Shown here piece by piece: positions 1,894 through 58,969 of a stretch of 64,000 bases of DNA (the stretch's first letter is position 1; every line of letters starts with the position of its first letter). The notes beneath the pieces were generated by a model that saw only the letters and a program-made list of their open reading frames with translations, made no database searches and was not told the origin of the DNA. The DNA is from Parachlamydiales bacterium (GTDB taxonomy: Bacteria > Chlamydiota > Chlamydiia > Chlamydiales > CALOCV01): NCBI GenBank assembly GCA_942491955.1, contig CALOCV010000015.1, positions 47,762 to 111,761 of the forward strand, in the 5' to 3' direction. A program made the translations under genes and the position numbers.

Positions 1894-3282
1894 TTACGTC
1901 TTTTCCCTTTTGCGAGGCAGTGCCATGGAAAGAGCTTCCTGAAGATGGTCAACGGGAAGAAGGGCGATTTTTTTGTGGAGAGCAGGGGAGAGATTCTTGA
2001 TCCCTTTTTTTGGGAGGATACATTGCTGAAAACCGAGGTGAATCGCTTCTTTAATGCGCGTTTCGATGCGCGTTACGGGGCGGATTTCTCCGCTAAGGCC
2101 AACCTCGCCAATAAAAAGTGTATGGGGATCAAGGGGTTGGTTATGGAGCGACGAGGCAATCGATAGAGACAAGCCGAGATCAGTAGCAGGTTCCGTGATG
2201 CGGATACCACCGACAACAGAAACGAAGACGTCGCATCGTTGAAGGGGGTAACCCGCTCTTTTTTCGAGGACAGCAAGCAAGAGAGCCAAGCGGTTGGGAT
2301 CGATACCAGCGCTCCTTCGAGAAGGAGTCGCATAGGCCGTTTCCGCAATGAGCGATTGGATTTCGATGAGCAAAGCTCGAGAACCTTCGAGCGTCGGGAT
2401 GATGGCTGAGCCAATCTGGTGGAGTTGTCTCTCTTGTAAAAAAAGAAGGGAGGGATTGGGGATTTCGACAAGCCCCTTTTCCGTCATCGAGAAAATGGCA
2501 ACCTCATCAGTGGGACCAAAGCGATTTTTGACGACGCGGATCATACGGAAAGGGTGCTGCTTATCTCCTTCGAAATAGAGGACGGTATCGACGAGGTGTT
2601 CTAGAACACGAGGGCCGGCGATCTCTCCCGCTTTGGTAACATGACCGATAAGGAAAGTGGTCATTTGAAGACCTTTGGCCAAATGCATCAACTCAGTGGT
2701 GATTTCGCGCACTTGAGAGATGGAACCGGGAGAAGAGGGGAGATCGCTTTTATAAAGGACCTGAATTGAGTCGGCAATGAGGATATCAGGTCGAAGTTTT
2801 TCAATGTGGTGGCGGATGGCTGAGAAATGTGTTTCTGAAAGGAGATAGAGAGAGGGTGAGTCAATCCCAAGGCGCTTGGCACGAAGAGAGGTTTGTTCGG
2901 CAGACTCCTCTCCACATATGTAGAGGACCGTCAAACCTTGCGAAGAAAAAGAGTGAGAGAGTTGAAGAAGAAGGGTTGACTTTCCAATGCCGGGGTCTCC
3001 TCCGACAAGATTTAAAGAGCCTGGGGTAGTGCCTCCACCAAGAAGACGGTCCCATTCAGGAATCGTTGTTTTTACGCGCTGAAGAGATTCAACGGGAATC
3101 TCTTTGATTAGGAGAGGACGGGATTCTTTTTTTAATGAGGAGGTAAAGCGAGATGGAGGCGGGGGAGCTTCACTTTCTTCTTGCAGAGTATTCCACTCGT
3201 GACAAGAAGAACATTGTCCCACCCATTTTTGATGCTGTCCGCCACAGGAAGTGCACGACCAAATGGTTTTTACTTTACCCAT
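1894..3282 (-). CDS. radA: DNA repair protein RadA/Sms
   Basis: 462 aa. N-terminal zinc finger CTSCGGQHQKWVGQCSSCHEW, Walker A GGDPGIGKST, KNRFG motif, Lon-protease-like C-terminal domain. Confidence 0.95.
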   Translation of the reverse strand: MGKVKTIWSCTSCGGQHQKWVGQCSSCHEWNTLQEESEAPPPPSRFTSSLKKESRPLLIKEIPVESLQRVKTTIPEWDRLLGGGTTPGSLNLVGGDPGIGKSTLLLQLSHSFSSQGLTVLYICGEESAEQTSLRAKRLGIDSPSLYLLSETHFSAIRHHIEKLRPDILIADSIQVLYKSDLPSSPGSISQVREITTELMHLAKGLQMTTFLIGHVTKAGEIAGPRVLEHLVDTVLYFEGDKQHPFRMIRVVKNRFGPTDEVAIFSMTEKGLVEIPNPSLLFLQERQLHQIGSAIIPTLEGSRALLIEIQSLIAETAYATPSRRSAGIDPNRLALLLAVLEKRAGYPLQRCDVFVSVVGGIRITEPATDLGLSLSIASSLHNQPLDPHTLFIGEVGLSGEIRPVTRIETRIKEAIHLGFQQCILPKKGIKNLSPALHKKIALLPVDHLQEALSMALPRKREKT

Positions 3283-3992
3283 AATCCTTCATTCTGAAGC
3301 TGTTGTATTGCATCACAAGCAGCGGCCTGCTGGGCTTCCTTTTTCGAAGAGCCAACACCTGTGCCAAGAAGCTCTTGGTTTTTATAGACGCCAATGCGGA
3401 AGTCTTTTTTGTGGTCAGGGCCATTGGTTTCTAGGTTCTCGTAATGCGGGGTCATCTGGTAGTTTTTTTGGCACCAATCTTGAAGAGTTGTTTTCCAATT
3501 CGAGGTGGGTTGAGAGAGCAGTTTTTCCATGGTTTCAGAGAAATGGGATGTGAGAAATTGGCGAACGGTGGAAAGATCTCCATCAAGGAGGAGGGCTCCT
3601 ATAAGAGCTTCAAAGAAATCGGCGAGAATCGAATCTCTCCCTCTTCCTTCATTTCTTTGCTCACCTTTGCCAAGAAGGAGGTATTTTCCTAAATCGAGTT
3701 GCTTGACGTAATGCGCACAGGCCGCAGCAGAAACAAGGGTGGCGCGCATCGTTGAGAGATCTCCCTCAGGTGTTGTTGGGTGCTTGAGATAGAGTTCCTC
3801 AGCAATAAGGAAACCAAGGACGGCATCGCCCAAAAACTCGAGACGTTCATTGTAGTTGTCAAGTAGATCGTTTTCGTTAGCAAAAGAGCGATGAATGAAT
3901 GCAAGGGCGAGCAGGTCGGGGTTTTTAAATGTGTACCCGACTTTTTTTTGTATGGTTTCAAGATTTTCTAAAAGGGGACTTGGAATGTTCAT
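3270..3992 (-). CDS. rnc: Ribonuclease III
   Basis: 240 aa. RNase III signature ERLEFLGDAVLG and C-terminal dsRNA-binding domain (GSSKKEAQQAAA). Overlaps the radA start by 13 nt (operon). Confidence 0.95.
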   Translation of the reverse strand: MNIPSPLLENLETIQKKVGYTFKNPDLLALAFIHRSFANENDLLDNYNERLEFLGDAVLGFLIAEELYLKHPTTPEGDLSTMRATLVSAAACAHYVKQLDLGKYLLLGKGEQRNEGRGRDSILADFFEALIGALLLDGDLSTVRQFLTSHFSETMEKLLSQPTSNWKTTLQDWCQKNYQMTPHYENLETNGPDHKKDFRIGVYKNQELLGTGVGSSKKEAQQAAACDAIQQLQNEGLWVK

Positions 3993-5652: not shown

Positions 5653-5675
5653 AAAAATTCCTTTTTAATCCATTT

Positions 5676-5823
5676 ATACCAATTTCAATACACAAGCACA
5701 CAAATTGATCCGCATATTTCTTGCTAAATCTATTTTTCTATCTTGCAAACTCACAAGAATTTACATCGTTCTCCAAAAACAATTTTTAATTCAATTTGTG
5801 TCTTTATTTTTTTCCATTGGTAC
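5676..5823 (-). mobile_element. MITE-1 divergent copy
   Basis: Shares the core ttttctatcttgcaaactcacaaga and flanking blocks (cacaaattgatc..., ctccaaaaacaattt) with MITE-1. Termini are degenerate (ataccaatttcaat ... ccattggtac). Confidence 0.6.
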
Positions 5824-6299
5824 CAATCTAAAAGATCCGAGCATATTTCGCAACATTAAGTTGTTTGGGTATATCTCCCTTTACGGAGATGTGGACAAAG
5901 CATGAACCTGTCCACAAAGTGCTTCGGCTATTATAGGAAATACGACAAGTTATCGGGGTCTTTAGAACCTGTTTAAAATCTTTCTAATCCTGTATAAACA
6001 ATTATTTTCCAAGACAATTGTAGGTATTTTATGCCCCATTGCTATCCTAGCGATATGGATCGTGAACAGTTTAACAAAATTAAACCTCTTCTGGAATCTG
6101 CAAGAGAAAAAAACACGTCCTAGAGCGGTCGACTTATATGATGTAATTTGTGGCATTTCATATGTTTGAAAAACCAGTTTACATATGGTCATCCTTGCTT
6201 TTGTCGTTTTATTCGTAAAACAGTTTTGAACGAGTTTTTAGAAAATAAACTACCACAGAGCCCACAGAGAACACAGAGGGAGGACATATAGATTGTTTA

Positions 6300-6494
6300 G
6301 TGCATCCAGAAATGTCTGAAGAAGTTGTAGAGGATCAGGTAATTATAGAAATTAAATCTGTGAATGGAATAGCTCTAATACACGAAGCACAACGACTATC
6401 TTATTTAAAGCTCTATGGAACTTGTGCTCGAGGATTGCTGATCAATTTTAATGTGAAACGATTGGTAGAAGGCATTCGTCGAATGAAAATATAA
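6300..6494 (+). pseudogene. C-terminal fragment of a GxxExxY-family (PD-(D/E)XK-like) protein carried inside an inverted-repeat module (6197-6566)
   Basis: VEDQVIIEIKSVNGIALIHEAQRLSYLKLYGTCARGLLINFNVKRL matches the C-terminal half of the family; the N-terminal half is absent. Flanked by ~33-bp inverted repeats ctaccacagagcccacagagaacacagagggagg (6250-6282) / ccctctctctgtgctctctgtgggctctgtggtag (6495-6539). Confidence 0.6.
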
Positions 6495-6571
6495 CCCTCT
6501 CTCTGTGCTCTCTGTGGGCTCTGTGGTAGTTTTTATTGCTGAGATATGTCAACCAAGTTTCTTAAGAACCT

Positions 6572-7114
6572 GTGAGAAAGTTTAAAAAAAAAATGGTTGG
6601 AGAGGTCCGACAAAACAATGGTCGGAAAGAGAAAACCAGTTTTATAATAATTGATGCGCAAAGCGTTAAAAATACCGATACAGCTGAGAGTAAAGGGTAT
6701 GATGCAGGAAAAAAAATTTCAGGGATAAAACGACACATCGCTGTAGACACCCAAGGATTACCTCATGCAATTCATATAACTACAGCAAATATTACAGATA
6801 GGAAAGGAGCGCTAGAAGCATGTTCATTGAAGAAGAGTTTTTTATCTGAAGTAAAAAACGTTTTAGGTGATGGAGGATACTCTGGAGAACCATTTTCAGA
6901 TGGTATTCAAGAGATATTGGGTTGTCCAGTAGAAATAGCCAAGAGAAATGAATTGCATACTTTTAAAGTGATTCCCAAAAGATGGGTTGTGGAACGTTCT
7001 TTTAGCTGGCTTGAAAAGTGTAGAAGATTATGGAAAAACTGTGAAAGAAAGCTAAATACTAGCTTAACTATGGTAGTCTTAGCATTTGTAGTTCTTCTTT
7101 TAAAAAGATTTTAA
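6572..7114 (+). CDS. IS5-family (IS427-like) transposase DDE ORF (orfB) of the deleted IS copy; probably non-functional without orfA
   Basis: 180 aa, near-identical to 45455-45976 (IIDAQSVKNTD...DGGYSGEPF...RWVVERSFSWL). Confidence 0.8.
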   Translation: MRKFKKKMVGEVRQNNGRKEKTSFIIIDAQSVKNTDTAESKGYDAGKKISGIKRHIAVDTQGLPHAIHITTANITDRKGALEACSLKKSFLSEVKNVLGDGGYSGEPFSDGIQEILGCPVEIAKRNELHTFKVIPKRWVVERSFSWLEKCRRLWKNCERKLNTSLTMVVLAFVVLLLKRF

Positions 7115-7153
7115 ACAGGTTCTAAGCAAGGCAAATTGTAGGGGATTGTATCA

Positions 7154-7420: not shown

Positions 7421-7790
7421 GCTTTTGTCGTTTTATTCGTAAAACAGTTTTGAACGAGTTTTTAGAAAATAAACTACCACAGAGCCCACAGAGAACACAG
7501 AGGGAGGACATATAGATTGTTTAGTGCATCCAGAAATGTCTGAAGAAGTTGTAGAGGATCAAGTAATTATAGAAATTAAATCTGTGAATGGAATAGCTCC
7601 AATACACGAAGCACAACGACTATCTTATTTAAAGCTCTAAGGAGCTTGTGCCCGAGGATTGCTTATCAATTTTAATGTGAAACGATTGGTAGAAGGCATT
7701 CGTCGAATGAAAATATAACCCTCTCTCTGTGCTCTCTGTGGGCTCTGTGGTAGTTTTTATTGCTGAGATATGTCAACCAAGTTTCTTAAG
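7421..7790 (+). repeat. GxxExxY module copy 2 (fragment ORF now carries an internal stop)
   Basis: Collinear with 6197-6566 and 44756-45124, including both 33-bp inverted repeats. TAT->TAA at aagctctaagg. Followed at 7815-7833 by an isolated IS right-end-like sequence gattttgaacaggttc. Confidence 0.7.
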
Positions 7791-7817: not shown

Positions 7818-8303
7818 TTAAAAGATTTTGAACAGGTTCTGAGTGCATCGTTTATCGAGTTGGATTTTTGGCAAAAGTTTGTGGAATAAGGGAGATAAAG
7901 TAAAAATTCTTTTAATATATGTGCCAATTTTTTGGGTTTTGGTAGCTTTTTTTAAGGTTTCGTCGCCCCATTTATTGAGTTGAGAGAGCTGATAGGCAAC
8001 GCGTTTTCCCGTTTCTATCTGTTCTGCACAATCGTATGGTGTCCAATTTTCAAATTTTTGTGTTTTACAACGAGCCGATTTCAGAGTTTTTTCTTGGAGA
8101 TGGCGCCAAGTAAAAATGAGTTTTGTCAGAGAGACGGAATCCCCCTCCTTCGGTTTTTCTTTTGCGAGTGTGAATCTTCGTCCTCCTCGCTTGCCAATGC
8201 TGGGGGAGAGTTGTATCACGAGTTGTTCAAATTCTACAAAATTTCTACAAGATGTGAGTTGAGAAGAGAGAGATTTTGCGGTCATAAATTCTTTTATATG
8301 CAA
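7818..8303 (-). CDS. Hypothetical protein
   Basis: 161-aa ORF with no recognisable motifs. Confidence 0.4.
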   Translation of the reverse strand: MHIKEFMTAKSLSSQLTSCRNFVEFEQLVIQLSPSIGKRGGRRFTLAKEKPKEGDSVSLTKLIFTWRHLQEKTLKSARCKTQKFENWTPYDCAEQIETGKRVAYQLSQLNKWGDETLKKATKTQKIGTYIKRIFTLSPLFHKLLPKIQLDKRCTQNLFKIF

Positions 8304-15427: not shown

Positions 15428-15496
15428 TATACCCAAACAACTTCAAGAATTGGGTTTATGGCTTTGAAAAAAACCCGGATCAGTTGTTTGGGTATA

Positions 15497-15658
15497 ATAC
15501 CAATTCCGGTAAGAAAGTGCACAAATTGATCTTCATCTTTCTTTGCGCAATCTGTTTTTCTATCTTGCAAACTCACAAGAGTTTGCTGCGATCTCCAAAA
15601 CAAATTTCGCAAAAAAATCCTGAATCCACTTTATGCATTTTCTTACCGGAATTGGTAT
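15497..15658 (-). mobile_element. MITE-1 copy B (inverted orientation)
   Basis: Full-length reverse complement of copy A with both TIRs. Abutted on the left by a ~67-bp palindromic unit atacccaaacaact...agttgtttgggtat (15429-15495). Confidence 0.85.
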
Positions 15659-15851
15659 AAAGTGGAGTGCGAAGGCCCTGCCTTCGCGTTCTTCGCGTTG
15701 AATAGACTCTGGATTTTTTGTAGCCAATCCGTTAACCTTCTCTTGTGTCAGGAGTTTCTTTTGAAAAGATCAGCTTGAACGAATTCTTCTGAGTTTTGCT
15801 TATCAAGCTCAGAAAAAAGTTCCCTCACATCTCCAGAAAAATAAAAACAGA

Positions 15852-16882: not shown

Positions 16883-16988
16883 TTTTCTATCTTGCAAACT
16901 CACAAGAGTTTGCTTCGATCTCCAAAATAAATTTCGCAAAAAAAAATCTTGAATCCAAGATATCTTATTATGTCTTTCCGCTGGCATC
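16883..16988 (-). mobile_element. MITE-1 truncated copy (one end missing)
   Basis: ttttctatcttgcaaactcacaagagtttgcttcgatctccaaaataaatttcgcaaaaaaa... matches the core and one arm only. Confidence 0.6.
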
Positions 16989-32092: not shown

Positions 32093-32197
32093 TATACCAA
32101 ACGCGATAAATAAACGCACAAATTGATCTCCATATCCAAAACAAATTCCAAAAAAAAATCTTGAATCCAATTTATGCGTTTATTTATCGCGTTTGGT
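32093..32197 (-). mobile_element. MITE-1-related short variant with its own 25-bp TIRs
   Basis: ataccaaacgcgataaataaacgca ... tgcgtttatttatcgcgtttggtat. The interior shares cacaaattgatc and aaaaaaatcttgaatcca blocks with MITE-1 but lacks the central hairpin. Confidence 0.6.
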
Positions 32198-32198
32198 A

Positions 32199-33143
32199 TT
32201 AGAGTCTTCGTGTCTCATCGCCTCGAGGTTTTGAAAGAAGTCTATTGCTATATTTAAGACCCTTAACACCGCGGCGTTGAAGAGGGGTTCCATGGAGTTT
32301 TTCGGGGGCGTTTTCTAGCTCTTCAATGTCGTTGCTCTGTAGGTGTGTTCCCAAACCCTGATCGGATGAGAATTCGGCATGAGAAGAGAGGAGAGTGCGT
32401 GCATTGTGAGGGCAGACATCTTGGCAGACATCACAACCAAAGAGGTAGCCTGGATTTTTTTCTTGAATCTCTTCGGGAATGGGGTCTTTAGATTCAATGA
32501 GATGATAGGAGAGGCACCGTGTTGCATCGAGAGTGTACGGTGAGATAAGAGCTTGCGTGGGGCAGCTATCCAGACATCGTGTGCAGGAACCGCATCGCGG
32601 AAGGCGGAGTTCGATTCTTTCCTCGGTAAAAGAGAGGGTCGTTAGCAGACCTGAGATGAGGATAAAAGTACCGAAGCGCCGGTGTATGAGAAGAGTATTT
32701 TTCCCCATCCATCCCAAACCCGCTTGGACGGCTAATGCTTTTTCTAATAGGGGAGAGGAGTCGCTAAATCCTTTGGCAATCTCTTTTTGACCCGTTTTTT
32801 CTTCGAGCCATTGAATGAAATTTTTTAATCGTTTTCGATGGATGTGGTGGTAATCTTTTCCTCGTGCGTAGGAAGCGATTAAGCCAGGTTTCTCTTTCGG
32901 ATCGATTTTCTCTTGTTTGTAGTAGGAAACAAAGAGAACGGCCGTTTTAGCTCCTGGAAAAAAAGCTTGAGGGTCGATGCGAGCGCGATTCTCCATATAA
33001 GACATCGACCCATGATATTCCTTCTCGAGCCATTGCAGATAGGAGTCGATCTCTTCTTGTGCGATTTGAGCCGGCGTAATGCCAATGTCATCATAGCCAA
33101 TGGTAAAAGCTTTCTCTCGTAATTCTTCGAACGAGAGGCTCAT
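32199..33143 (-). CDS. queG: Epoxyqueuosine reductase QueG
   Basis: 314 aa. Ferredoxin-type clusters CGSCTRCLDSCP and CDVCQDVCP, plus the QueG-like N-terminal pattern. Confidence 0.9.
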   Translation of the reverse strand: MSLSFEELREKAFTIGYDDIGITPAQIAQEEIDSYLQWLEKEYHGSMSYMENRARIDPQAFFPGAKTAVLFVSYYKQEKIDPKEKPGLIASYARGKDYHHIHRKRLKNFIQWLEEKTGQKEIAKGFSDSSPLLEKALAVQAGLGWMGKNTLLIHRRFGTFILISGLLTTLSFTEERIELRLPRCGSCTRCLDSCPTQALISPYTLDATRCLSYHLIESKDPIPEEIQEKNPGYLFGCDVCQDVCPHNARTLLSSHAEFSSDQGLGTHLQSNDIEELENAPEKLHGTPLQRRGVKGLKYSNRLLSKPRGDETRRL

Positions 33144-34881: not shown

Positions 34882-35997
34882 ATGAATAATACCTCGTCTC
34901 TATTCCGCATCTTTTTCTCTTTGGAACATTTATTGCACCCCATGAGTCGAGCAAAGGACAAGCAAGATTTATCTAAAATTGCGACGAAGGAAAAAGTTCT
35001 TACAGCTGCCCTATACGTCTTATTAGGGTGCACAGTGCTTGGGTTTGTTGTCGTTGGGGCTTATTTTTGGACAGCAAGGAAAAAAGTAATCCAATTATCA
35101 TCGAGTGATTTTCCGAAAGTGCCTCGACCACAAGCACCGAGTCGATCGACTACACCACCTCCAAAGCCGAGATCTACACTATCCCCAAAACCGTTAGAAA
35201 CCGTACCTCCTCCCAAAGAAATAGAAAAAGAAGAAAAGGTAGCAAGGCAGGTTCATGCAGATGAGTTTGATTCCTTCCTCTTCGCTCTCTTTACCGAAAC
35301 GGATCGCCTCGATTGCCTTTTTAAAGAAAAAAACAATGATACCGAAGAGGCAAAACAGGTAAGATGTTATTTACGACAAATTAAAAAGGAATTGGAAGGG
35401 GATAGGGGGAAAATGAATCCAGAATTAACGGCAAAGATGTATGGTATCTTGTTGAGAGAGGTGGAAGGAATAGAGCCATTACATAATAAAACCCTCGGAG
35501 ATCAAACGATCATCGGGATTCAAATGATTCCAGCTTTGCAGAAGCTTTTACAGATTGGTGTGAATGAGATACAAAGTTTTGATATTTTCGCTCCTACCGG
35601 TTTGCTTGATTTGGATGACTTGCTTCGAAGTGGCGAAGTGTGGATGGATTTAGATTTGAAAGGCATTAAGGAGAGCGAGCCCGAAATGGTTTTTTTTAAC
35701 ATTCGCCGTCCTAAAAAATCGGAAGGCTGTTCGTTTGTTCAGGTTCCAACAGAGTGTACATTGAGGGGAGTGGAATATTTTGTTCGAGGGGGGGCTTTTC
35801 AAACCAAGGACAACCAATTTGTTGGTATTCAGATGAGAGAGGCAGAGTGGCGTCAACAGCTTAGTAAAGTTCCGGAGAAAGGAGAAATGCATTCTGTAAA
35901 AGAGCTATGTCTATGTACGGAAGAAGATAAAGATACATTTCAGAGAAGAATGCATTTGTTAATTTTGGTAAAAAAAAATAGTGTATCTCGGTCGTGA
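34882..35997 (+). CDS. Hypothetical membrane-anchored protein with Pro-rich linker
   Basis: 371 aa. TM segment VLTAALYVLLGCTVLGFVVVGAYFW, then PRPQAPSRSTTPPPKPRSTLSPKPLETVPPPKE. The C-terminal domain is unassigned. Confidence 0.55.
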   Translation: MNNTSSLFRIFFSLEHLLHPMSRAKDKQDLSKIATKEKVLTAALYVLLGCTVLGFVVVGAYFWTARKKVIQLSSSDFPKVPRPQAPSRSTTPPPKPRSTLSPKPLETVPPPKEIEKEEKVARQVHADEFDSFLFALFTETDRLDCLFKEKNNDTEEAKQVRCYLRQIKKELEGDRGKMNPELTAKMYGILLREVEGIEPLHNKTLGDQTIIGIQMIPALQKLLQIGVNEIQSFDIFAPTGLLDLDDLLRSGEVWMDLDLKGIKESEPEMVFFNIRRPKKSEGCSFVQVPTECTLRGVEYFVRGGAFQTKDNQFVGIQMREAEWRQQLSKVPEKGEMHSVKELCLCTEEDKDTFQRRMHLLILVKKNSVSRS

Positions 35998-36136
35998 ATG
36001 CAAAAAGGTTCTATACGATGTATACCCAAACAACTTCAAGAATTGGATTTATGGCTTTGAGAAAACCCATAAATCCAATTAGCGACTTTGCGTTTCCATT
36101 TTTTTAGGCAAAACTTCTCCGACAAGACCTTGCTTT

Positions 36137-36791
36137 ATACCAATTCCGGTAAGAAAATGCATAAAGTGGATTCAGGATTTTTTTGCGAAATTTGTTTTGG
36201 AGATCGCAGCAAACTCTTGTGAGTTTGCACTATAGTTTATAGGTTTTCGCGTTGTCCATGGGGTGTTTTGAGAAAAAAAGGATTGAAAGAGGCTTCAATG
36301 TGGAGTGCGGAGGCCTTGGCCTCCGCTGTGGTAGATGCCGGCCCCGCCGGCATCATTAACGCCGGCAGGGCCGGCGTTTGAAAAGCGATGGCAGGGCCAT
36401 CGCACTCCATATTACAGCTAATTTCAATGTACCTTCGGGAAGGTGTGAGGAATTACAAGGGCCTTGGCCTTCGCTGTAGAAGATGCCGGCCCTGCCGGCA
36501 TCACTGCAGATGGCGAGTTCTTTAGCTCGAATAAAAGCTTCTTCTTTGCAAAAAGCATCTCTCCACGAATCGAATATCTGAAATAAAGGTTTGAGTAGGT
36601 TCTTAGTGTTCCTTTAGTTGATTAAATAGAATGACTATGAACCTTACTATTTTTTCCAAAAAGAAAAATTTCTCCTAACTAAAAATCCTATAAACTATAG
36701 AGCAAATTCTTGTGAGTTTGCAAGATAGAAAAACAGATTGCGCAAAGAAAGATGAAGATCAATTTGTGCACTTTCTTACCGGAATTGGTAT
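36137..36791 (+). mobile_element. MITE-1 copy C, split by a nested 471-bp element
   Basis: The left arm ends at ...cttgtgagtttgca (36229). The right arm resumes at agcaaattcttgtgagtttgcaagatag (36701). Both TIRs are intact. Confidence 0.8.
36230..36700. mobile_element. Nested non-coding element with 14-bp perfect TIRs and a GC-rich multi-hairpin core
   Basis: TIRs ctatagtttatagg / cctataaactatag. Flanked by a 22-bp duplication of the MITE hairpin (agcaaaCtcttgtgagtttgca / agcaaaTtcttgtgagtttgca). The core at 36298-36412 has an outer stem tggagtgcg/cgcactcca enclosing 3-4 GC hairpins. No ORF of 60 aa or more. Confidence 0.65.
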
Positions 36792-36936
36792 TAATTAGTT
36801 TTTGAATTTACTTCGGTATCATACCAATCCTAATAAAAATAAATCGAGAGAGGGCAAAGGCACCTCTGATTGTCTTCAGTCCTTGACAAATAGAAAAGTA
36901 TCGAGTATCAATGTTGGGTTTTTGAAAGGTTAAAAC

Positions 36937-39027
36937 ATGTTTTACGGAATGTTTGCATTTATTCTTATTTGTGGCTTCATAGCCCTTTTCTTTGGTCTCC
37001 TCTTTATTCGTTCTATCTTGTCACAACCAACAGGGAATGAAGAGATGAAGCGGATTGCACAAGCAATCCAAGAGGGTGCCAATGCCTATCTCAATCGACA
37101 GTATCGCGTGATTACTTTGGTAGGCATTGTGATCTTTTTGTTGCTTACCTGGCAGCTTGGCCTCCATGTGGGTGTTGGCTTCATTATAGGAGCGGTGCTC
37201 TCTGGTCTTGCTGGATATGTTGGGATGCACGTCTCGGTTCGTGCCAACGTAAGAACAACAGAAGCTGCAAGAAAAGGATTATCACAAGCGCTTGATGTCG
37301 CCTTTCGAGCCGGTGCTGTGACGGGGTTGCTCGTCGTCGGTTTAGGCCTTTTAGGAATCACCTTTTATTTTCTCTATCTAACGCTTGCTAGGTATGATGT
37401 GCGCACCATGATGGAGTCTCTTGTTGCCTTGAGCTTTGGAGCCTCTTTGATTTCCATTTTTGCTCGTCTTGGTGGAGGCATATTCACAAAAGGAGCTGAT
37501 GTTGGAGCTGACCTCGTGGGAAAAGTGGAATCGAATATTCCCGAGGATGATCCAAGAAATCCTGCTGTCATTGCGGATAATGTTGGCGATAACGTAGGAG
37601 ATTGTGCAGGAATGGCTGCCGATCTTTTTGAGACTTATGTTGTCACTCTTGTTGGATCGATGCTACTCGCCGCGATTTTTTTTAAGGGTGCTATTCTGGA
37701 AAAATTGATTCTGTATCCTTTGGCAATAGGTGGTGTATGCATCCTGATGACCATCATTGGGACTTTTTTTGTTCGTTTAGGCAAAACAAACAACATCATG
37801 GGAGCCCTGTATAAAGGATTTTTTGCTACAGCGATTCTTTCGGCAGTTAGCATTGGTATTCTCACCTATGCGTATCTCGACAAAGGTGCATCCTACCGAG
37901 TTAACGAGACCACCTTTACCAATATGAACCTTTTCATTTGTGCCTTGACTGGCCTTTTTGTTACAGGACTTTTGATGTGGTTGACCGAGTACTACACCTC
38001 GACGAAGTATCGTCCCGTTCGGAGCATTGCATTCGCTTCTACTTCGGGACATGGGACGAATGTGATTCAAGGTCTTGCTATTTCCATGGAAGCAACCGCT
38101 TTGCCCGTTCTAGTCATTTGTGGAGGAATTCTCGTATCGTATCTCAATGCAGATCTTTTTGGTATTGCTATTGCAGCGACTTCGATGTTGGCATTAGCTG
38201 GAATGGTCGTCGCTTTGGATGCCTATGGTCCTGTAACCGACAATGCAGGAGGGATTGCAGAGATGGCGCATCTTCCTGATGAAATTCGGACAACAACGGA
38301 TGCATTGGATGCTGTTGGGAATACGACAAAAGCGGTAACAAAAGGGTATGCGATTGGATCCGCAGCCTTTGCAGCTCTTGTGCTTTTCACGGCATTCATT
38401 GAAGATTTGACCTATTATTTCCCCAATCTAGAATGTAATTTCTTTTTACAAAATCCGTATGTCGTTCTCGGGCTTTTTATTGGAGGTCTTCTTCCCTATC
38501 TCTTTGGTGGAATGAGCATGATGGCAGTCGGTCGAGCAGCTCAGGCGGTTGTTGCCGAAGTGAGGCGGCAATTTTCTGAGATCAAAGGAATTATGGAAGG
38601 GAAAGCCCGTCCCGATTATGGACAAGCGGTCGACATATTAACACGGGCAGCGATCCGTGAAATGATCGCCCCCTCCCTTCTTCCCGTTCTTGCTCCGATC
38701 CTTCTCTACATGGTGATCCATTTCATAGCGGGGCAAAAGGAAGCTCTGGTTGCTTTGGGCTCGATGCTTCTTGGTCTTGTCGTCACTGGGATCTATGTTG
38801 GCATTTCCATGACAGCAGGTGGTGGGGCATGGGATAATGCTAAAAAACTCATCGAAGATGGGCAGCACGGAGGAAAAGGAGCTGAAGCCCATAAAGCGGC
38901 TGTTACAGGAGATACTGTGGGAGATCCCTACAAAGATACTGCTGGTCCAGCTATCAATCCGATGATTAAGATTGCCAATATCGTTGCCTTGCTTCTTTTA
39001 GCGGTATTATCACAATATTTTTCGTAA
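36937..39027 (+). CDS. hppA: Membrane-bound proton-translocating pyrophosphatase
   Basis: 696 aa, about 16 TM. Motifs [20 protein letters not shown] and [21 protein letters not shown]. Confidence 0.95.
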
Positions 39028-45174: not shown

Positions 45175-45516
45175 TTGGAGGCAATGATGGCTCACTCTTA
45201 TCCAAGCGATATTTCTCGAAAGCAATTTGACAAAATCAAACCTTTGCTTGAGTCTGTGCGAAAAAAAACACGCCCTAGAACCGTAGACCTTTTTGATATT
45301 TTTTGTGGAATTTTATATGTTTTAAAAAGTGGCTGTCAGTGGCGTATGTTGCCAAAAGAATATCCTAAATGGGAACTTTGCTATTACTATTTCCAGTTAT
45401 GGAAAGAAAGCGATGATAATTCAGAAAGCATCCTTGAGAAAGTTTTAAAAAAAAATGGTTGGAGAGGTCCGACAAAACAATGGTCGGAAAGAGAAAACCA
45501 GTTTTATAATAATTGA
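45175..45516 (+). CDS. IS5-family transposase orfA (HTH part)
   Basis: 113 aa. YPSDISRKQFDKIKPLLE...GCQWRMLPKEYPKW is typical of IS5/IS427-group InsA. Confidence 0.8.
   Translation: MEAMMAHSYPSDISRKQFDKIKPLLESVRKKTRPRTVDLFDIFCGILYVLKSGCQWRMLPKEYPKWELCYYYFQLWKESDDNSESILEKVLKKNGWRGPTKQWSERENQFYNN
45447..45455 (+). promoter_or_regulatory. Probable programmed -1 ribosomal frameshift site (A9) joining orfA and orfB
   Basis: The A-run lies in the orfA/orfB overlap. A -1 slip gives ...EKVLKKKMVGEVRQNNGRKEKTSFIIIDAQSVK. Confidence 0.55.
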
Positions 45517-45976
45517 TGCGCAAAGCGTTAAAAATACCGATACAGCTGAGAGTAAAGGGTATGATGCAGGAAAAAAAATTTCAGGGATAAAACGACACAT
45601 CGCTGTAGACACCCAAGGATTACCTCATGCAATTCATATAACTACAGCAAATATTACAGATAGGAAAGGAGCGCTAGAAGCATGTTCATTGAAGAAGAGT
45701 TTTTTATCTGAAGTAAAAAACGTTTTAGCTGATGGAGGATACTCTGGAGAACCATTTTCAGATGGTATTCAAGAGATATTGGGTTGTCCAGTAGAAATAG
45801 CCAAGAGAAATGAATTGCATACTTTTAAAGTGATTCCCAAAAGATGGGTTGTGGAACGTTCTTTTAGCTGGCTTGAAAAGTGTAGAAGATTATGGAAAAA
45901 CTGTGAAAGAAAGCTAAATACTAGCTTAACTATGGTAGTCTTAGCATTTGTAGTTCTTCTTTTAAAAAGATTTTAA
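45455..45976 (+). CDS. IS5-family transposase orfB (DDE domain)
   Basis: 173 aa. IIDAQSVKNTD, ADGGYSGEPF, RWVVERSFSWLEKCRRL. Confidence 0.85.
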   Translation: MVGEVRQNNGRKEKTSFIIIDAQSVKNTDTAESKGYDAGKKISGIKRHIAVDTQGLPHAIHITTANITDRKGALEACSLKKSFLSEVKNVLADGGYSGEPFSDGIQEILGCPVEIAKRNELHTFKVIPKRWVVERSFSWLEKCRRLWKNCERKLNTSLTMVVLAFVVLLLKRF

Positions 45977-54479: not shown

Positions 54480-55203
54480 ATGAAAAAATCCTTCTTACCA
54501 CCCCATGGTGGCTATCAAAGTTTGCTTTCCTATCAAAAAGCTGAAATCGTTTACGACGCTACCGTTTATACCAATTCCGGTAAGAAAATGCATAAAGTGG
54601 ATTCAGGATTTTTTTGCGAAATTTGTTTTGGAGATCGTAGCAAACTCTTGTGAGTTTGCAAGATAGAAAAACAGATTGCGCAAAGAAAGATGAAGATCAA
54701 TTTGTGCACTTTCTTACCGGAATTGGTATTACTTCACGCAAAGGTTTTATCGAAAAGGGGATCGCACGATGGATCAAATGGTTCAGGCGGCGCGTTCGGG
54801 TAAGCAAAACATTGCCGAAGCCAGTCAAGCATCGGGAACATCGAAAGAGATGGAGATTAAGTTGACGAATGTCGCTCGAGCAAGTCAAGAAGAGTTATTG
54901 TTAGATTATCGGGATTTTCTTCGGATTCATCAACTCGAAGAGTGGGCAAAAGATCACCCCCTTACAAGTCGGTTGCGTATTTTATGTAAATCTCCTCAAC
55001 CCACCTACACAACGTTTCAAAAAGGGATAGAACATTCCGAACCAGTCATTTCCGCCAATGTCATCATCGGTTTAATCAAAGTAACCAATTATCTTCTTGA
55101 CCAGCAAATTCGTCGGTTAGAGGAAGACTTTTTGCGCGAAGGAGGCTTGCGCGAACGGATGACCAAAGCCAGACTTGCTGTTCGCAATCAAAGAAAACGC
55201 TAG
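54480..55203 (+). pseudogene. Four-helix-bundle family protein (with suffix-type C-terminal domain) interrupted by a MITE-1 insertion
   Basis: MKKSFLPPHGGYQSLLSYQKAEIVYDATVY | 162-bp MITE | (Y)FTQRFYRKGDRTMDQMVQAARSGKQNIAEASQASGTSKEMEIKLTNVARASQEELLLDYRDFL... The flanks are in frame, and the MITE contains stop codons. Confidence 0.8.
54568..54729 (+). mobile_element. MITE-1 copy D, inserted inside a coding sequence
   Basis: Full-length, with both TIRs. Differs from copy A at only a few positions. Confidence 0.85.
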
Positions 55204-55437: not shown

Positions 55438-56439
55438 TCAAGTCTCTTTGCTTAGTGGGAGATTCTCTAGTTCAATAATATCGGCCTTATCCGCTTCCAA
55501 TTTTTCTAGGTGCTTTCTATTATTGTTAAATTCTGTGTAACGTTCCAATGCTAGTTGTTCGGCTATCTGTGCTGAAATTTGTCCTGAATGATTCAAAATT
55601 GCTCTATCATTAAATGAAAGAAAGGCGTCAAGTTTATCAGCCCATTCGTTCATGGTCATAGTTTTACGTCTTTTAGCTTGATCTTCAGCATAGTCTAGAT
55701 ACATCGTAACAATTCTATTAAGTTCATTAATTTCTTCTTGAGAAAGATAGTTTTTAGCAATCGTTATATCGCCTTGACGAACTCGACTTCCCTTCCAGCT
55801 GGTAAGACCCATATTTGGTAGCTGTGGATTTGCACGATGACAAATTAGTTCGGCGGCAGTATGTCCAGTCAACGCCCAAAACATCTTATTTTGGACCTTT
55901 TTAAAGAAAAAATGTGCTTGACCGCTCTTAGGGTCGTAGTCTACAGCGGTTGTATAGATATCTTTTACTTTTTGATAGAATCGCTTTTCAGAAGCCCGAA
56001 TTTCACGAATTCGCTCAAGCAATTCATCAAAGTAATCCCAACTTCCAGGCTCTTTAAGACGAACATCGTCTAGTATGAAGCCTTTAACTAGATATTCTTG
56101 CAAATGAGATGTTGCCCATCTGCGAAACTGGGTGCCTCGTGCAGAGCGAACTCTGTATCCAATTGCCAAAATGATGCTAAGCTCATAGAGCTTTACCTCT
56201 CTTTGTATGTTCCTATTTCCCTCCTTTTGAACTAGTAAGTAATCCTTACTAGTTGAGTTGGGATCTGCCTCATTTTCTTCGTAAATTCTTTGTATATGAA
56301 GAGTTATGTTCTGGGGAGTTGTTTGAAACAGTTCGGCAATTTCTGAGCGAGTTAACCAAACTGTTCCTTCTTCGGCTTTCAATTGAACAGAAGTCTTTCC
56401 GTCATCAGTTGTGTAAAGGATAATTTCGCCGTTAGACAT
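55438..56439 (-). CDS. RhuM-family protein
   Basis: 333 aa. ILYTTDDGKTSVQL...VWLTRSEIAELFQTTPQNITLHI...AIGYRVRSARGTQFRRWAT is characteristic of the RhuM family. Confidence 0.85.
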   Translation of the reverse strand: MSNGEIILYTTDDGKTSVQLKAEEGTVWLTRSEIAELFQTTPQNITLHIQRIYEENEADPNSTSKDYLLVQKEGNRNIQREVKLYELSIILAIGYRVRSARGTQFRRWATSHLQEYLVKGFILDDVRLKEPGSWDYFDELLERIREIRASEKRFYQKVKDIYTTAVDYDPKSGQAHFFFKKVQNKMFWALTGHTAAELICHRANPQLPNMGLTSWKGSRVRQGDITIAKNYLSQEEINELNRIVTMYLDYAEDQAKRRKTMTMNEWADKLDAFLSFNDRAILNHSGQISAQIAEQLALERYTEFNNNRKHLEKLEADKADIIELENLPLSKET

Positions 56440-58601: not shown

Positions 58602-58969
58602 AATGGATTGGGCTTTGCTCCCCGAAATTGGGCTCATTCTTGGAAATAATGAAACGCAAATTTCTTTGCGTCTTAGCGACTTTGCGTTTCCATTTTTTTA
58701 GGCAAAACTTCCCCGACAAGACCTTGTTTCAACCAATTTTTGAATTTATTTCGGTATAACAATCCAATTTACACATTTAGTTACCCTATTTGGTATAACT
58801 CAATTTTTTCTCCACGAATTATTTTCCTCTCCAATGACTACTGATTTTTCTTTTCGATGATGGATGTTGAATATTTACCCTCTATCAGGTAATTAAAGAA
58901 TAATACCTATTCTTAAAAGCTGTCTGCTAAAGATAGGGAGTTCTTGTTTTCTGTAAAAAAGAGGTTTTT

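Follow-up and report, generated by a model that had tools for sequence, protein, structure and literature searches.

In the window analysed here, a stretch of 64,000 nucleotides from a Parachlamydiales bacterium (contig CALOCV010000015.1), a 471-bp insert (36230-36700) with no gene of its own interrupts a resident MITE (miniature inverted-repeat transposable element) at its central hairpin. The insert is bounded by perfect 14-bp terminal inverted repeats (TIRs), the left one being CTATAGTTTATAGG (36230-36243) and the right one (36687-36700) matching its reverse complement exactly, and is flanked on each side by a complete copy of the 22-bp target hairpin. We consider it very probable that this insert is a mobile TIR element whose insertion produced a true duplication of hairpin length. 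The same ends, hereafter M, recur in other contigs beside perfect hairpins of unrelated sequence, and it is likely that the choice of target is guided by DNA structure and not by sequence.

The host of the insert is a MITE of ~160 bp (TACCAATTCCGG...CCGGAATTGGTA), delineated by a BLAST comparison of the region with the window, which has a 3-bp TTA/TAA duplication and a central hairpin with an 8-bp stem. Three intact copies and the interrupted copy are 99-100% identical to one another, which argues that this family was recently active, and its TWA duplication suggests a putative mobiliser of the IS5/Harbinger type. After removal of the insert and the right hairpin, the interrupted copy was 100% identical over ~160 bp to the copies at 1710 and 15495 in a MAFFT alignment. 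Because the intact copies hold the hairpin only once, the boundaries of the insert and the 22-bp duplication were fixed independently of the TIRs; for an inverted repeat of 14 bp without mismatch to fall exactly on those boundaries, the chance is ~4^-14, and its occurrence there is not due to chance. The two hairpin copies, AGCAAACTCTTGTGAGTTTGCA (36208-36229) and AGCAAATTCTTGTGAGTTTGCA (36701-36722), are identical at 21 of 22 positions, the sole mismatch being C36214 versus T36707. Thus, comparison with the uninterrupted copies bore out the initial annotation, which had described an element within an element with perfect 14-bp TIRs and 22-bp flanks, and identified the 22-bp repeat as a real duplication of the whole target hairpin.

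With TIRs at its exact ends, a flanking target duplication, a small size and no transposase gene, the insert has these features in common with a MITE, although the length of its duplication is atypical of one. The ATG-, GTG- or TTG-initiated open reading frames (ORFs) listed within it encode 40-57 amino acids (aa), two of which on the minus strand (57 and 44 aa) matched no family when scanned against Pfam; neither a transposase nor any other family match was found in its interior. The window contained no further exact copies of CTATAGTTTATAGG, and a search allowing up to three mismatches returned none beyond chance.

The M motif (CTATAGTTTATAGGWTTTT; consensus CTATAGTTTATAGG(A/T)TTTTTAG) recurs in nine further contigs, giving 10 loci together with the window. 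Six of these contigs (L001-L006) were obtained by scanning JGI metagenomes with the end motif and were thus picked by M alone; the others (L087, L088/L110 and L113) were found through the contigs of the closest homologues of a GxxExxY protein. In L001, an inverted M pair 594 bp apart surrounds a single ORF, which encodes such a GxxExxY protein (PDDEXK_3/TIGR04256; PD-(D/E)XK). The same element, with 97% protein identity, is present in L087, and the 81-kb NCBI contig L088/L110 carries an M pair 496 bp apart with GxxExxY as its only ORF. GxxExxY is therefore the sole ORF in three M elements, and the M-bounded GxxExxY cassettes of these metagenome or metagenome-assembled-genome (MAG) contigs span 496-594 bp. 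M lies beside an ORF for a four-helix-bundle protein in L004 (23S_rRNA_IVP/TIGR02436, '23S rRNA IVS protein', where IVS denotes intervening sequence), and a variant with one mismatch occurs in L113. The right M end of the window and L004 have 28 nt in common; with L006, the match extends over 33 nt at 91% identity. In L002, M stands directly behind the stop codon that closes a long repetitive ORF, which may be pmp-like as judged by reading alone, and is followed by a region rich in GC hairpins that is analogous, not homologous, to the cargo of the window insert.

These relatives lie in uncultured Chlamydia-like bacteria. The 22-nt end pattern had no match in 185,579 GTDB species genomes, M was absent from 1.45 Mb of unrelated genomes (up to two mismatches in 19 nt), and viral contigs, plasmids and phages yielded neither an M element nor a match to the insert (by BLAST for plasmids and phages). 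M ends were also absent from the contigs of the GxxExxY homologues P0047, P0019, P0091, P0012, P0002 and P0005, and a 45-aa N-terminal query for ORFs reading through M recovered GxxExxY fragments only, all without M. We therefore rejected M as a general feature of GxxExxY cassettes; because most such cassettes lack M, it forms a separate outer layer with varying cargo. Neither the M sequence, nor MITEs that duplicate hairpins, nor GxxExxY or IVS-protein cassettes bounded by M were described in the literature searched, which also yielded nothing on MITEs of Chlamydiae. The window insert is probably a non-autonomous, MITE-like member of a family of short elements bounded by TIRs, with the ends CTATAGTTTATAGG(A/T)TTTT.

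A second complete duplication was found in L088, where the element is flanked by TCCTTCGCCTTTAGGCGAAGGT (3013-3034) on the left and TCCTTCGCTTTTAGGCGAAGGT (3531-3552) on the right, that is, by TCCTTCGC[C/T]TTTAGGCGAAGGT on both sides. This duplicated hairpin also comprises 22 bp (8-bp stem, 4-nt loop and an additional base per side), and its sequence is unrelated to that of the window hairpin. Because the window and L088 use different hairpins, the hairpin is derived from the target, and the possibility that it is carried by the element was rejected. Over the inner 90 nt shown from the M end, L001 and L087 are identical, but their flanking hairpins differ; the same element thus stands beside different hairpins and is therefore mobile, having been inserted at two places, both of them hairpins.

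Altogether, a perfect hairpin abuts 9 of the 13 M ends at a distance of 0-1 nt, namely both ends of the elements in the window, L088 and L001, and the ends in L004, L087 and L113. The flanking hairpins span 22-40 bp, and the seven different ones, at six sites, are unrelated in sequence. Within the same sequences, 0.15% (0.0015) of all positions precede a perfect hairpin whose stem is at least 8 bp long; relative to this background, hairpins at 8 of 12 M ends correspond to P ~1e-20, a value for which the M ends are not all mutually independent (six hairpin sites out of ten). As M alone served to select the contigs, the association is an independent observation. Of the two explanations initially offered for the unusual duplication length, staggered cleavage around a DNA hairpin best fits the second 22-bp duplication and the nine hairpin-abutting ends.

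Several observations weigh against this interpretation. Complete hairpin duplications are known from two cases, the window and L088; the L001 element is flanked by two different hairpins without a duplication; and the M ends of four contigs (L002, L003, L005 and L006) have no abutting hairpin. Moreover, the 64-kb window holds a single copy of the insert, none of the 10 M-carrying loci yielded a transposase with M ends, and the only transposases of the window are IS5-family fragments, whose TIRs are unrelated to M. The L001 arrangement may reflect insertion between two tandem hairpins with coinciding feet, and the four hairpin-less ends may be decayed solo ends.

A plausible route of insertion can be outlined from the positions of the joints. 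The element would have integrated into the central stem-loop of the resident ~160-bp MITE after extrusion of the palindrome, the two feet of which would be related by the two-fold symmetry of the cruciform, a geometry that we infer. Each 3' end of the element would be joined at the 5' hairpin foot on its strand, 1 nt outside the 8-bp stem, so that the joints would lie 22 bp apart on opposite strands and each flank would retain one hairpin strand as a 5' overhang; gap repair would then yield two complete hairpin copies. The two hairpin copies of each complete duplication differ at a single base, which is C where the stem is perfect and T in the other copy (giving a G.T pair), and both times the difference is located in the element-proximal stem arm. 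In the window, this is the only substitution across the entire host MITE. Deamination of a single-stranded template before gap repair would produce such a C-to-T change, which is a hint from two cases only. Two other geometries were tried and rejected: hairpin ends of the IS200/IS605 type, as the hairpin remains in the empty sites, and a TA-duplicating IS630/Tc1 geometry, which did not reproduce the empty site.

As the element itself encodes no enzyme, its movement must depend on one supplied in trans. A trans-acting DDE transposase of the stem-loop-targeting IS1182 kind is the most likely mover, and we propose it tentatively. No NF033551 gene (IS1182-type DDE transposase) was found in the element, among the window ORFs of at least 150 aa or in the M loci, and the IS5-family fragment of the window scored 32.7 bits against the NF033551 cut-off of 270. 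The same set of window ORFs encoded no recombinase, Cas1, IS1182-type transposase or RAYT (transposase associated with repetitive extragenic palindromic (REP) sequences).

The closest known kind of element is IS1272 of the IS1182 family, for which structure-targeted insertion as a concept is already known. IS1272 targets stem-loops, with new insertions reported at stem-loops of 22, 24 and 30 bp (PMC5678879), and the targets in 19 target/insertion sets collected by database searches ranged from 21 to 85 bp and had no sequence similarity (PMC5678879). It replaces the stem-loop and leaves no duplication (PMC5678879); in a hypothetical branch of the published model (pathway b of Fig. 13), joining at the 5' feet would lead to the entire stem-loop being duplicated (PMC5678879), and the outcome at M elements is the one expected of this pathway. 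Both systems have short TIRs (16 bp in IS1272 and 14-20 bp in M) and insertion at the feet of unrelated stem-loops. However, IS1272 is 1.9 kb in length and encodes a 548-aa transposase, whereas M elements are 471-594 bp without a transposase, and M duplicates the stem-loop that IS1272 is documented to replace. For the IS1182 family as a whole, ISfinder lists direct repeats of 0-60 bp.

Structure-guided targeting by transposons is poorly documented, and in IS1272, the only case analysed, the stem-loop is lost. If a family duplicates the stem-loop instead, the product still reveals which target was used and where it was cut, and such a family would be a convenient natural system for the study of transposases acting on cruciforms. 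As the targets resemble terminator hairpins and the hairpins of mobile elements, such elements can duplicate terminators and alter gene ends; the target hairpin of L088 is located between two convergent genes, one of which now ends at a stop codon inside M. In addition, M ends are linked to GxxExxY genes and to those for the four-helix-bundle IVS protein, two very large families without known function whose patchy, multi-copy spread is unexplained.

Other known systems share some of these features. Bacterial MITEs such as Correia, RUP and Nezha are likewise small, TIR-bounded, devoid of a transposase, flanked by a target duplication, folded in their interior and nested in repeats, but their duplications are 2-9 bp instead of a whole 22-bp hairpin; the insert also differs from them in occurring once in 64 kb, and its M relatives in carrying protein-coding cargo (GxxExxY or the four-helix bundle). 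In CRISPR spacer integration and in casposons, a whole and often palindromic target of tens of base pairs is duplicated by staggered attack at its borders, and casposons also have TIRs; in contrast, M elements have no Cas1 gene, and any hairpin can be their target. Casposon duplications are 14-15 bp, at specific genes. M relatives carry their genes within long inverted-repeat stems, as do the IVS, GxxExxY (TIGR04256) and four-helix-bundle (TIGR02436) cassettes, although the window insert has neither gene and most such cassettes lack M ends. A preference for extragenic palindromes is common to M and to IS1397/ISKpn1 and IS110/IS621-type elements, which differ in using specific REP sequences with insertion in the loop or at a fixed site, in having 0-4-bp duplications and in encoding their own transposase.

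That GxxExxY is the only ORF of L001, L087 and L088 raises the alternative that M elements move themselves: this PD-(D/E)XK nuclease would cut the feet of the extruded cruciform in the manner of a junction-resolving enzyme, the element would be ligated or copied into the resulting 22-nt staggered break, and the window copy would be a derivative that has no gene and is mobilised in trans. The observed stagger is what symmetric nicks at the feet would give, and the window holds GxxExxY remnants. In addition, in 70 diverse members of a huge, patchily distributed family (20,694 clusters at 50% identity, E up to 1e-3), the catalytic E, D and ExK show no variation (invariant positions G40, E45, D85, E95 and K97 in P0001 numbering). 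However, the structural model of the protein (predicted local distance difference test score, pLDDT, 94.7) gave weak, generic PD-(D/E)XK matches, the best being Cas4 SSO0001 (E 4e-3, template-modelling score, TM, 0.46), with the Holliday-junction resolvase ST1444 in 16th place (E 0.13); most GxxExxY cassettes have no M ends, and the other M cargo is a four-helix-bundle gene or palindromes only. We know of no PD-(D/E)XK superfamily nuclease that does the joining step alone. We therefore regard self-mobility through GxxExxY as improbable, and it is equally doubtful that M elements are the vehicle of an undescribed structure-guided movement by an enzyme other than a DDE, HUH or recombinase type, possibly GxxExxY itself, that would recognise any extruded hairpin and join the element at both feet. 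If true, such movement would explain the spread of the GxxExxY and four-helix-bundle IVS cassettes and their ending in helix tips.

Were the element a circular cassette joined by site-specific recombination between its own hairpin site and the MITE hairpin, in the manner of attC or other att sites, the flanking hairpins would be attL and attR. The cassettes are indeed small, some with a single ORF, their cargo is flanked by hairpins, and the L001 element lies between two different hairpins, as in a cassette array. Nevertheless, the hairpins are near-identical within a site and unrelated between the window and L088, so the element carries no recombination site of its own; they are also perfect and lack RYYYAAC/GTTRRRY or other conserved core motifs, the conserved inverted pair sits between cargo and hairpin, which is not the geometry of attC, and the window encodes no recombinase or integrase. 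Recombination of this kind is very unlikely, as is an invertible, phase-variable segment upstream of hppA with the M repeats as its recombination sites. The latter would account for inverted repeats of 14-18 bp around a ~440-bp segment located 237 bp upstream of a gene, with TATAGT within M scoring as a -10-like hexamer; it is disfavoured by the fact that the segment is an insertion relative to the sister MITE copies, with a target duplication, and that the same ends surround unrelated cargo at unrelated loci, by promoter-like matches no more frequent than in shuffled sequence and by the absence of an invertase gene from the window. Cas1 integrases attack both borders of a repeat, and a casposase-like enzyme that measures a palindromic target and duplicates it like a CRISPR repeat would be consistent with the 22-bp duplication in both complete cases. 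Given that no cas1 was found in the window ORFs, in any M locus or in the 20 kb around the L088 element, and that a hairpin range of 22-40 bp fits recognition of the feet better than a fixed ruler, insertion by such an enzyme is extremely improbable.

Within the insert, the stretch 36298-36412 has a GC content of 64%, versus 31-39% in the adjoining stretches of the element, and contains four perfect hairpins: H1 (36307-36326), H2 (36334-36354), H3 (36358-36378) and H4 (36385-36403). Its outer pairing, TGGAGTGCG (36301-36309) with CGCACTCCA (36401-36409), overlaps H1 and H4 by 3 nt. These four hairpins and H5, in the partial second copy of the core, are 19-21 nt in length with perfect 8-9-bp stems and 2-3-nt loops, all pairs being Watson-Crick with no G.U; four of the five units have the form NNNNNGGC-(AGG/CCY)-GCCNNNNN, and H2 and H3 are mutual inverted copies (93% complementary), like a REPIN doublet. 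Six such GC-hairpin units occur in the 64 kb, five of them inside the insert. The half-copy of the core that had been noted from the sequence was recovered (Table 1), as were the related fragments beside other MITE copies, namely CGCACTCCA at 1669 and TGGAGTGCG with a hairpin at 15663-15687; compared with H4, the unit at 15663-15690 has a compensatory T/A to A/T change in its stem.

The initial annotation had also interpreted the core as a compact multi-branch structure and possibly as a structured RNA gene or ribozyme-like module. The stems and the outer pairing are present where they were described, but DNA parameters alone make the multi-branch fold the minimum-energy structure; in the RNA minima, the hairpins instead pair with each other. 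Folding was far below shuffled controls (z = -11.4 and -10.6 for RNA of the plus and minus strands, respectively, and -8.8 as DNA); however, the two strands behaved alike, and such z-scores are what any cluster of perfect palindromes gives. A functional small RNA (sRNA) or ribozyme-like RNA carried by the element would agree with these very stable folds (z ~-11), with the compensatory differences between paralogous hairpins and with a match to the Pseudomonas sRNA P24 (E 2e-5). This match, the best in the core region, reached 27.4 bits against a gathering score of 100, and only tRNAs passed the threshold in the Rfam scan of the window. Stability that is nearly equal on both strands, the lack of G.U pairs, the 2-3-nt loops and the competing alternative folds likewise speak against an RNA, as do the absence of core homologues in the metagenome loci, plasmids, phages and protein collection (at the DNA or ORF level) and a promoter and terminator scan of the region that gave nothing above shuffled expectation. 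An RNA function is therefore unlikely, and a 57-aa ORF across the core was rejected as coding, as it has no homologue. We moderately favour DNA palindromes over an RNA gene.

REP, BIME (bacterial interspersed mosaic element) and REPIN (REP doublet) palindromes are moved by RAYT transposases and are tagged with GTAG or CGTC (PMC3733652). The core resembles REP and REPIN sequences in its GC-rich, perfect 19-21-nt palindromes, the inverted doublet H2/H3, compensated stem changes and a GTAG directly before H2; GTAG also occurs 2 nt from H5 and is absent at H1, H3, H4 and 15669. It is unlike REP sequences in that the window holds six units (five in the insert), most of which lack the tag, and no RAYT was seen in the window. 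That the palindromes were carried or accreted as REP/REPIN-like cargo, in line with the REP-type alternative raised in the initial annotation, is plausible but unproven; against it, no second complete copy of the core was found, and a REP-like status rests on six units. The outer stem of the core, its GC-rich arms and its position within M are like the inverted-repeat stems around the ORFs of L001, L004 and L088, and we speculate that the core may be the ORF-less remnant of a GxxExxY or four-helix-bundle cassette.

Table 1. Positions in the window of the insert, its flanking hairpins, the host MITE family and the related GC-hairpin unit.
Feature	Position	Strand	Remarks
Host MITE, left arm	36138..36207	+	Starts TACCAATTCCGG; TTA at 36135-36137; identical to the copies at 1710 and 15495
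Target hairpin, left copy	36208..36229	+	A-GCAAACTC-TTGT-GAGTTTGC-A; perfect 8-bp stem; C at 36214 is the MITE consensus
Left TIR (M end)	36230..36247	+	CTATAGTTTATAGGTTTT; same 14-19 nt at the ends in L001-L006, L087 and L088
GC-rich (64%) palindrome cluster H1-H4	36282..36428		Closed by an imperfect 42-nt inverted repeat
Partial second core copy	36460..36503		91% identical to 36312-36355; holds hairpin H5 (36482-36502)
AT-rich interior (~31% GC)	36504..36678		No ORF of a known family; no similarity elsewhere
Right TIR (M end)	36679..36700	-	Read inward, CTATAGTTTATAGGATTTTTAG; form conserved in the metagenome relatives
Target hairpin, right copy	36701..36722	+	T at 36707 in place of C, giving a G.T pair in the stem
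Host MITE, right arm	36723..36790	+	Ends CCGGAATTGGTA; TTA duplication at 36791-36793
Intact host MITE copies	~1710-1875; 15495-15662 (-); 54565-54734		Hairpin once, then AGATAG
Degenerate host MITE copies (n=4)	5672-5785; 16883-16957; 32094-32199; 58694-58798
Solitary sixth GC-hairpin unit	15663..15690	-	GCGAAGGC-AGG-GCCTTCGC, then ACTCCA; abuts another MITE copy

The insert is located in a 940-bp spacer between a gene without known function (34882-35997) and hppA (36937-39027). The practical consequence for the window is modest: ~650 bp of the spacer upstream of hppA is nested mobile DNA, and we saw no evidence that the insertion affects hppA. A TTGACA (~36884) and a TATCAA, ~17 nt apart, are visible by eye downstream of the MITE, a pair that the formal scan did not report. 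The spacer further contains a hairpin with an 18-bp stem (AATTGGATTTATGGCTTT/AAACCCATAAATCCAATT; 36041-36080) and a repeat, GCGACTTTGCGTTTCCATTTTTTTAGGCAAAACTTC... (36083-36146), that is found again at ~58670-58738; the region upstream of hppA is thus a mosaic of several repeat families. The closest GTDB relatives of HppA are at most 70% identical and come mostly from Alphaproteobacteria, together with a single Chlamydiae MAG, whereas the rest of the window looks chlamydial, with genes for a plant/Chlamydia-type LL-diaminopimelate (LL-DAP) aminotransferase (TIGR03542), a 630-aa GcpE and a large Ser/Thr kinase; by this gene content, the window is judged to be chromosomal DNA of a Chlamydia-like bacterium. 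Either hppA was horizontally acquired or the lineage is poorly sampled. An HppA-based scan of GTDB found no syntenic empty site.

Further observations concern the contigs related through M. In L006 (2133-2321), a perfect palindrome of 35 bp (TATACACAAACAACCTGAAAAATCGGTTTCTGACG/complement) comes after a lone M end and directly precedes a tRNA gene; the M end has neither a partner M nor an outer hairpin. In L002 (4700-5198), a GC-hairpin unit, AGGGGCTGCT...AGCCCCTCTGCAC(T/A)CCC, is present twice and shares a ...GCACTCC... tail with the window units (CGCACTCCA at 1669 and 36401), a similarity of 7 nt that may be due to chance. An ankyrin-repeat gene was also observed on a contig related through M.

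GxxExxY genes and IS5-like elements recur together. At ~5962-7125, the window contains an IS5-family element (TIR TTAGAACCTGTTTAAAATCTTT; NF033580 at 148.7 bits), the transposase gene of which is split by a remnant GxxExxY cassette (6195-6560); the remnant ORF (6300-6494) corresponds to the C-terminal 64 aa of PDDEXK_3 and is surrounded by inverted repeats of CACAGAG repeats. A duplicate GxxExxY cassette (~7421-7790) lies beside a solo IS end (~7820-7843), and a further IS5-like DDE fragment is located at 45455-45976. Approximately 20 listed contigs from different samples (L089-L107 and L112; for example, L098, 356-1703) carry GxxExxY directly beside the 3' end of an IS5-like transposase gene composed of two ORFs (HTH_Tnp_4 and DDE_Tnp_1/4), with an unchanged arrangement in every case. 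GxxExxY is likewise paired with an IS5-like gene in L001 and in the window, an association that is recurrent and unexplained. The GxxExxY family also includes tandem two-domain proteins of ~275 aa (P0185-P0194 and similar). Finally, a RhuM-family 'virulence protein' gene (55438-56439; PF13310, E 3e-112) is located near the MITE copy at 54565-54734 and may be part of an island.

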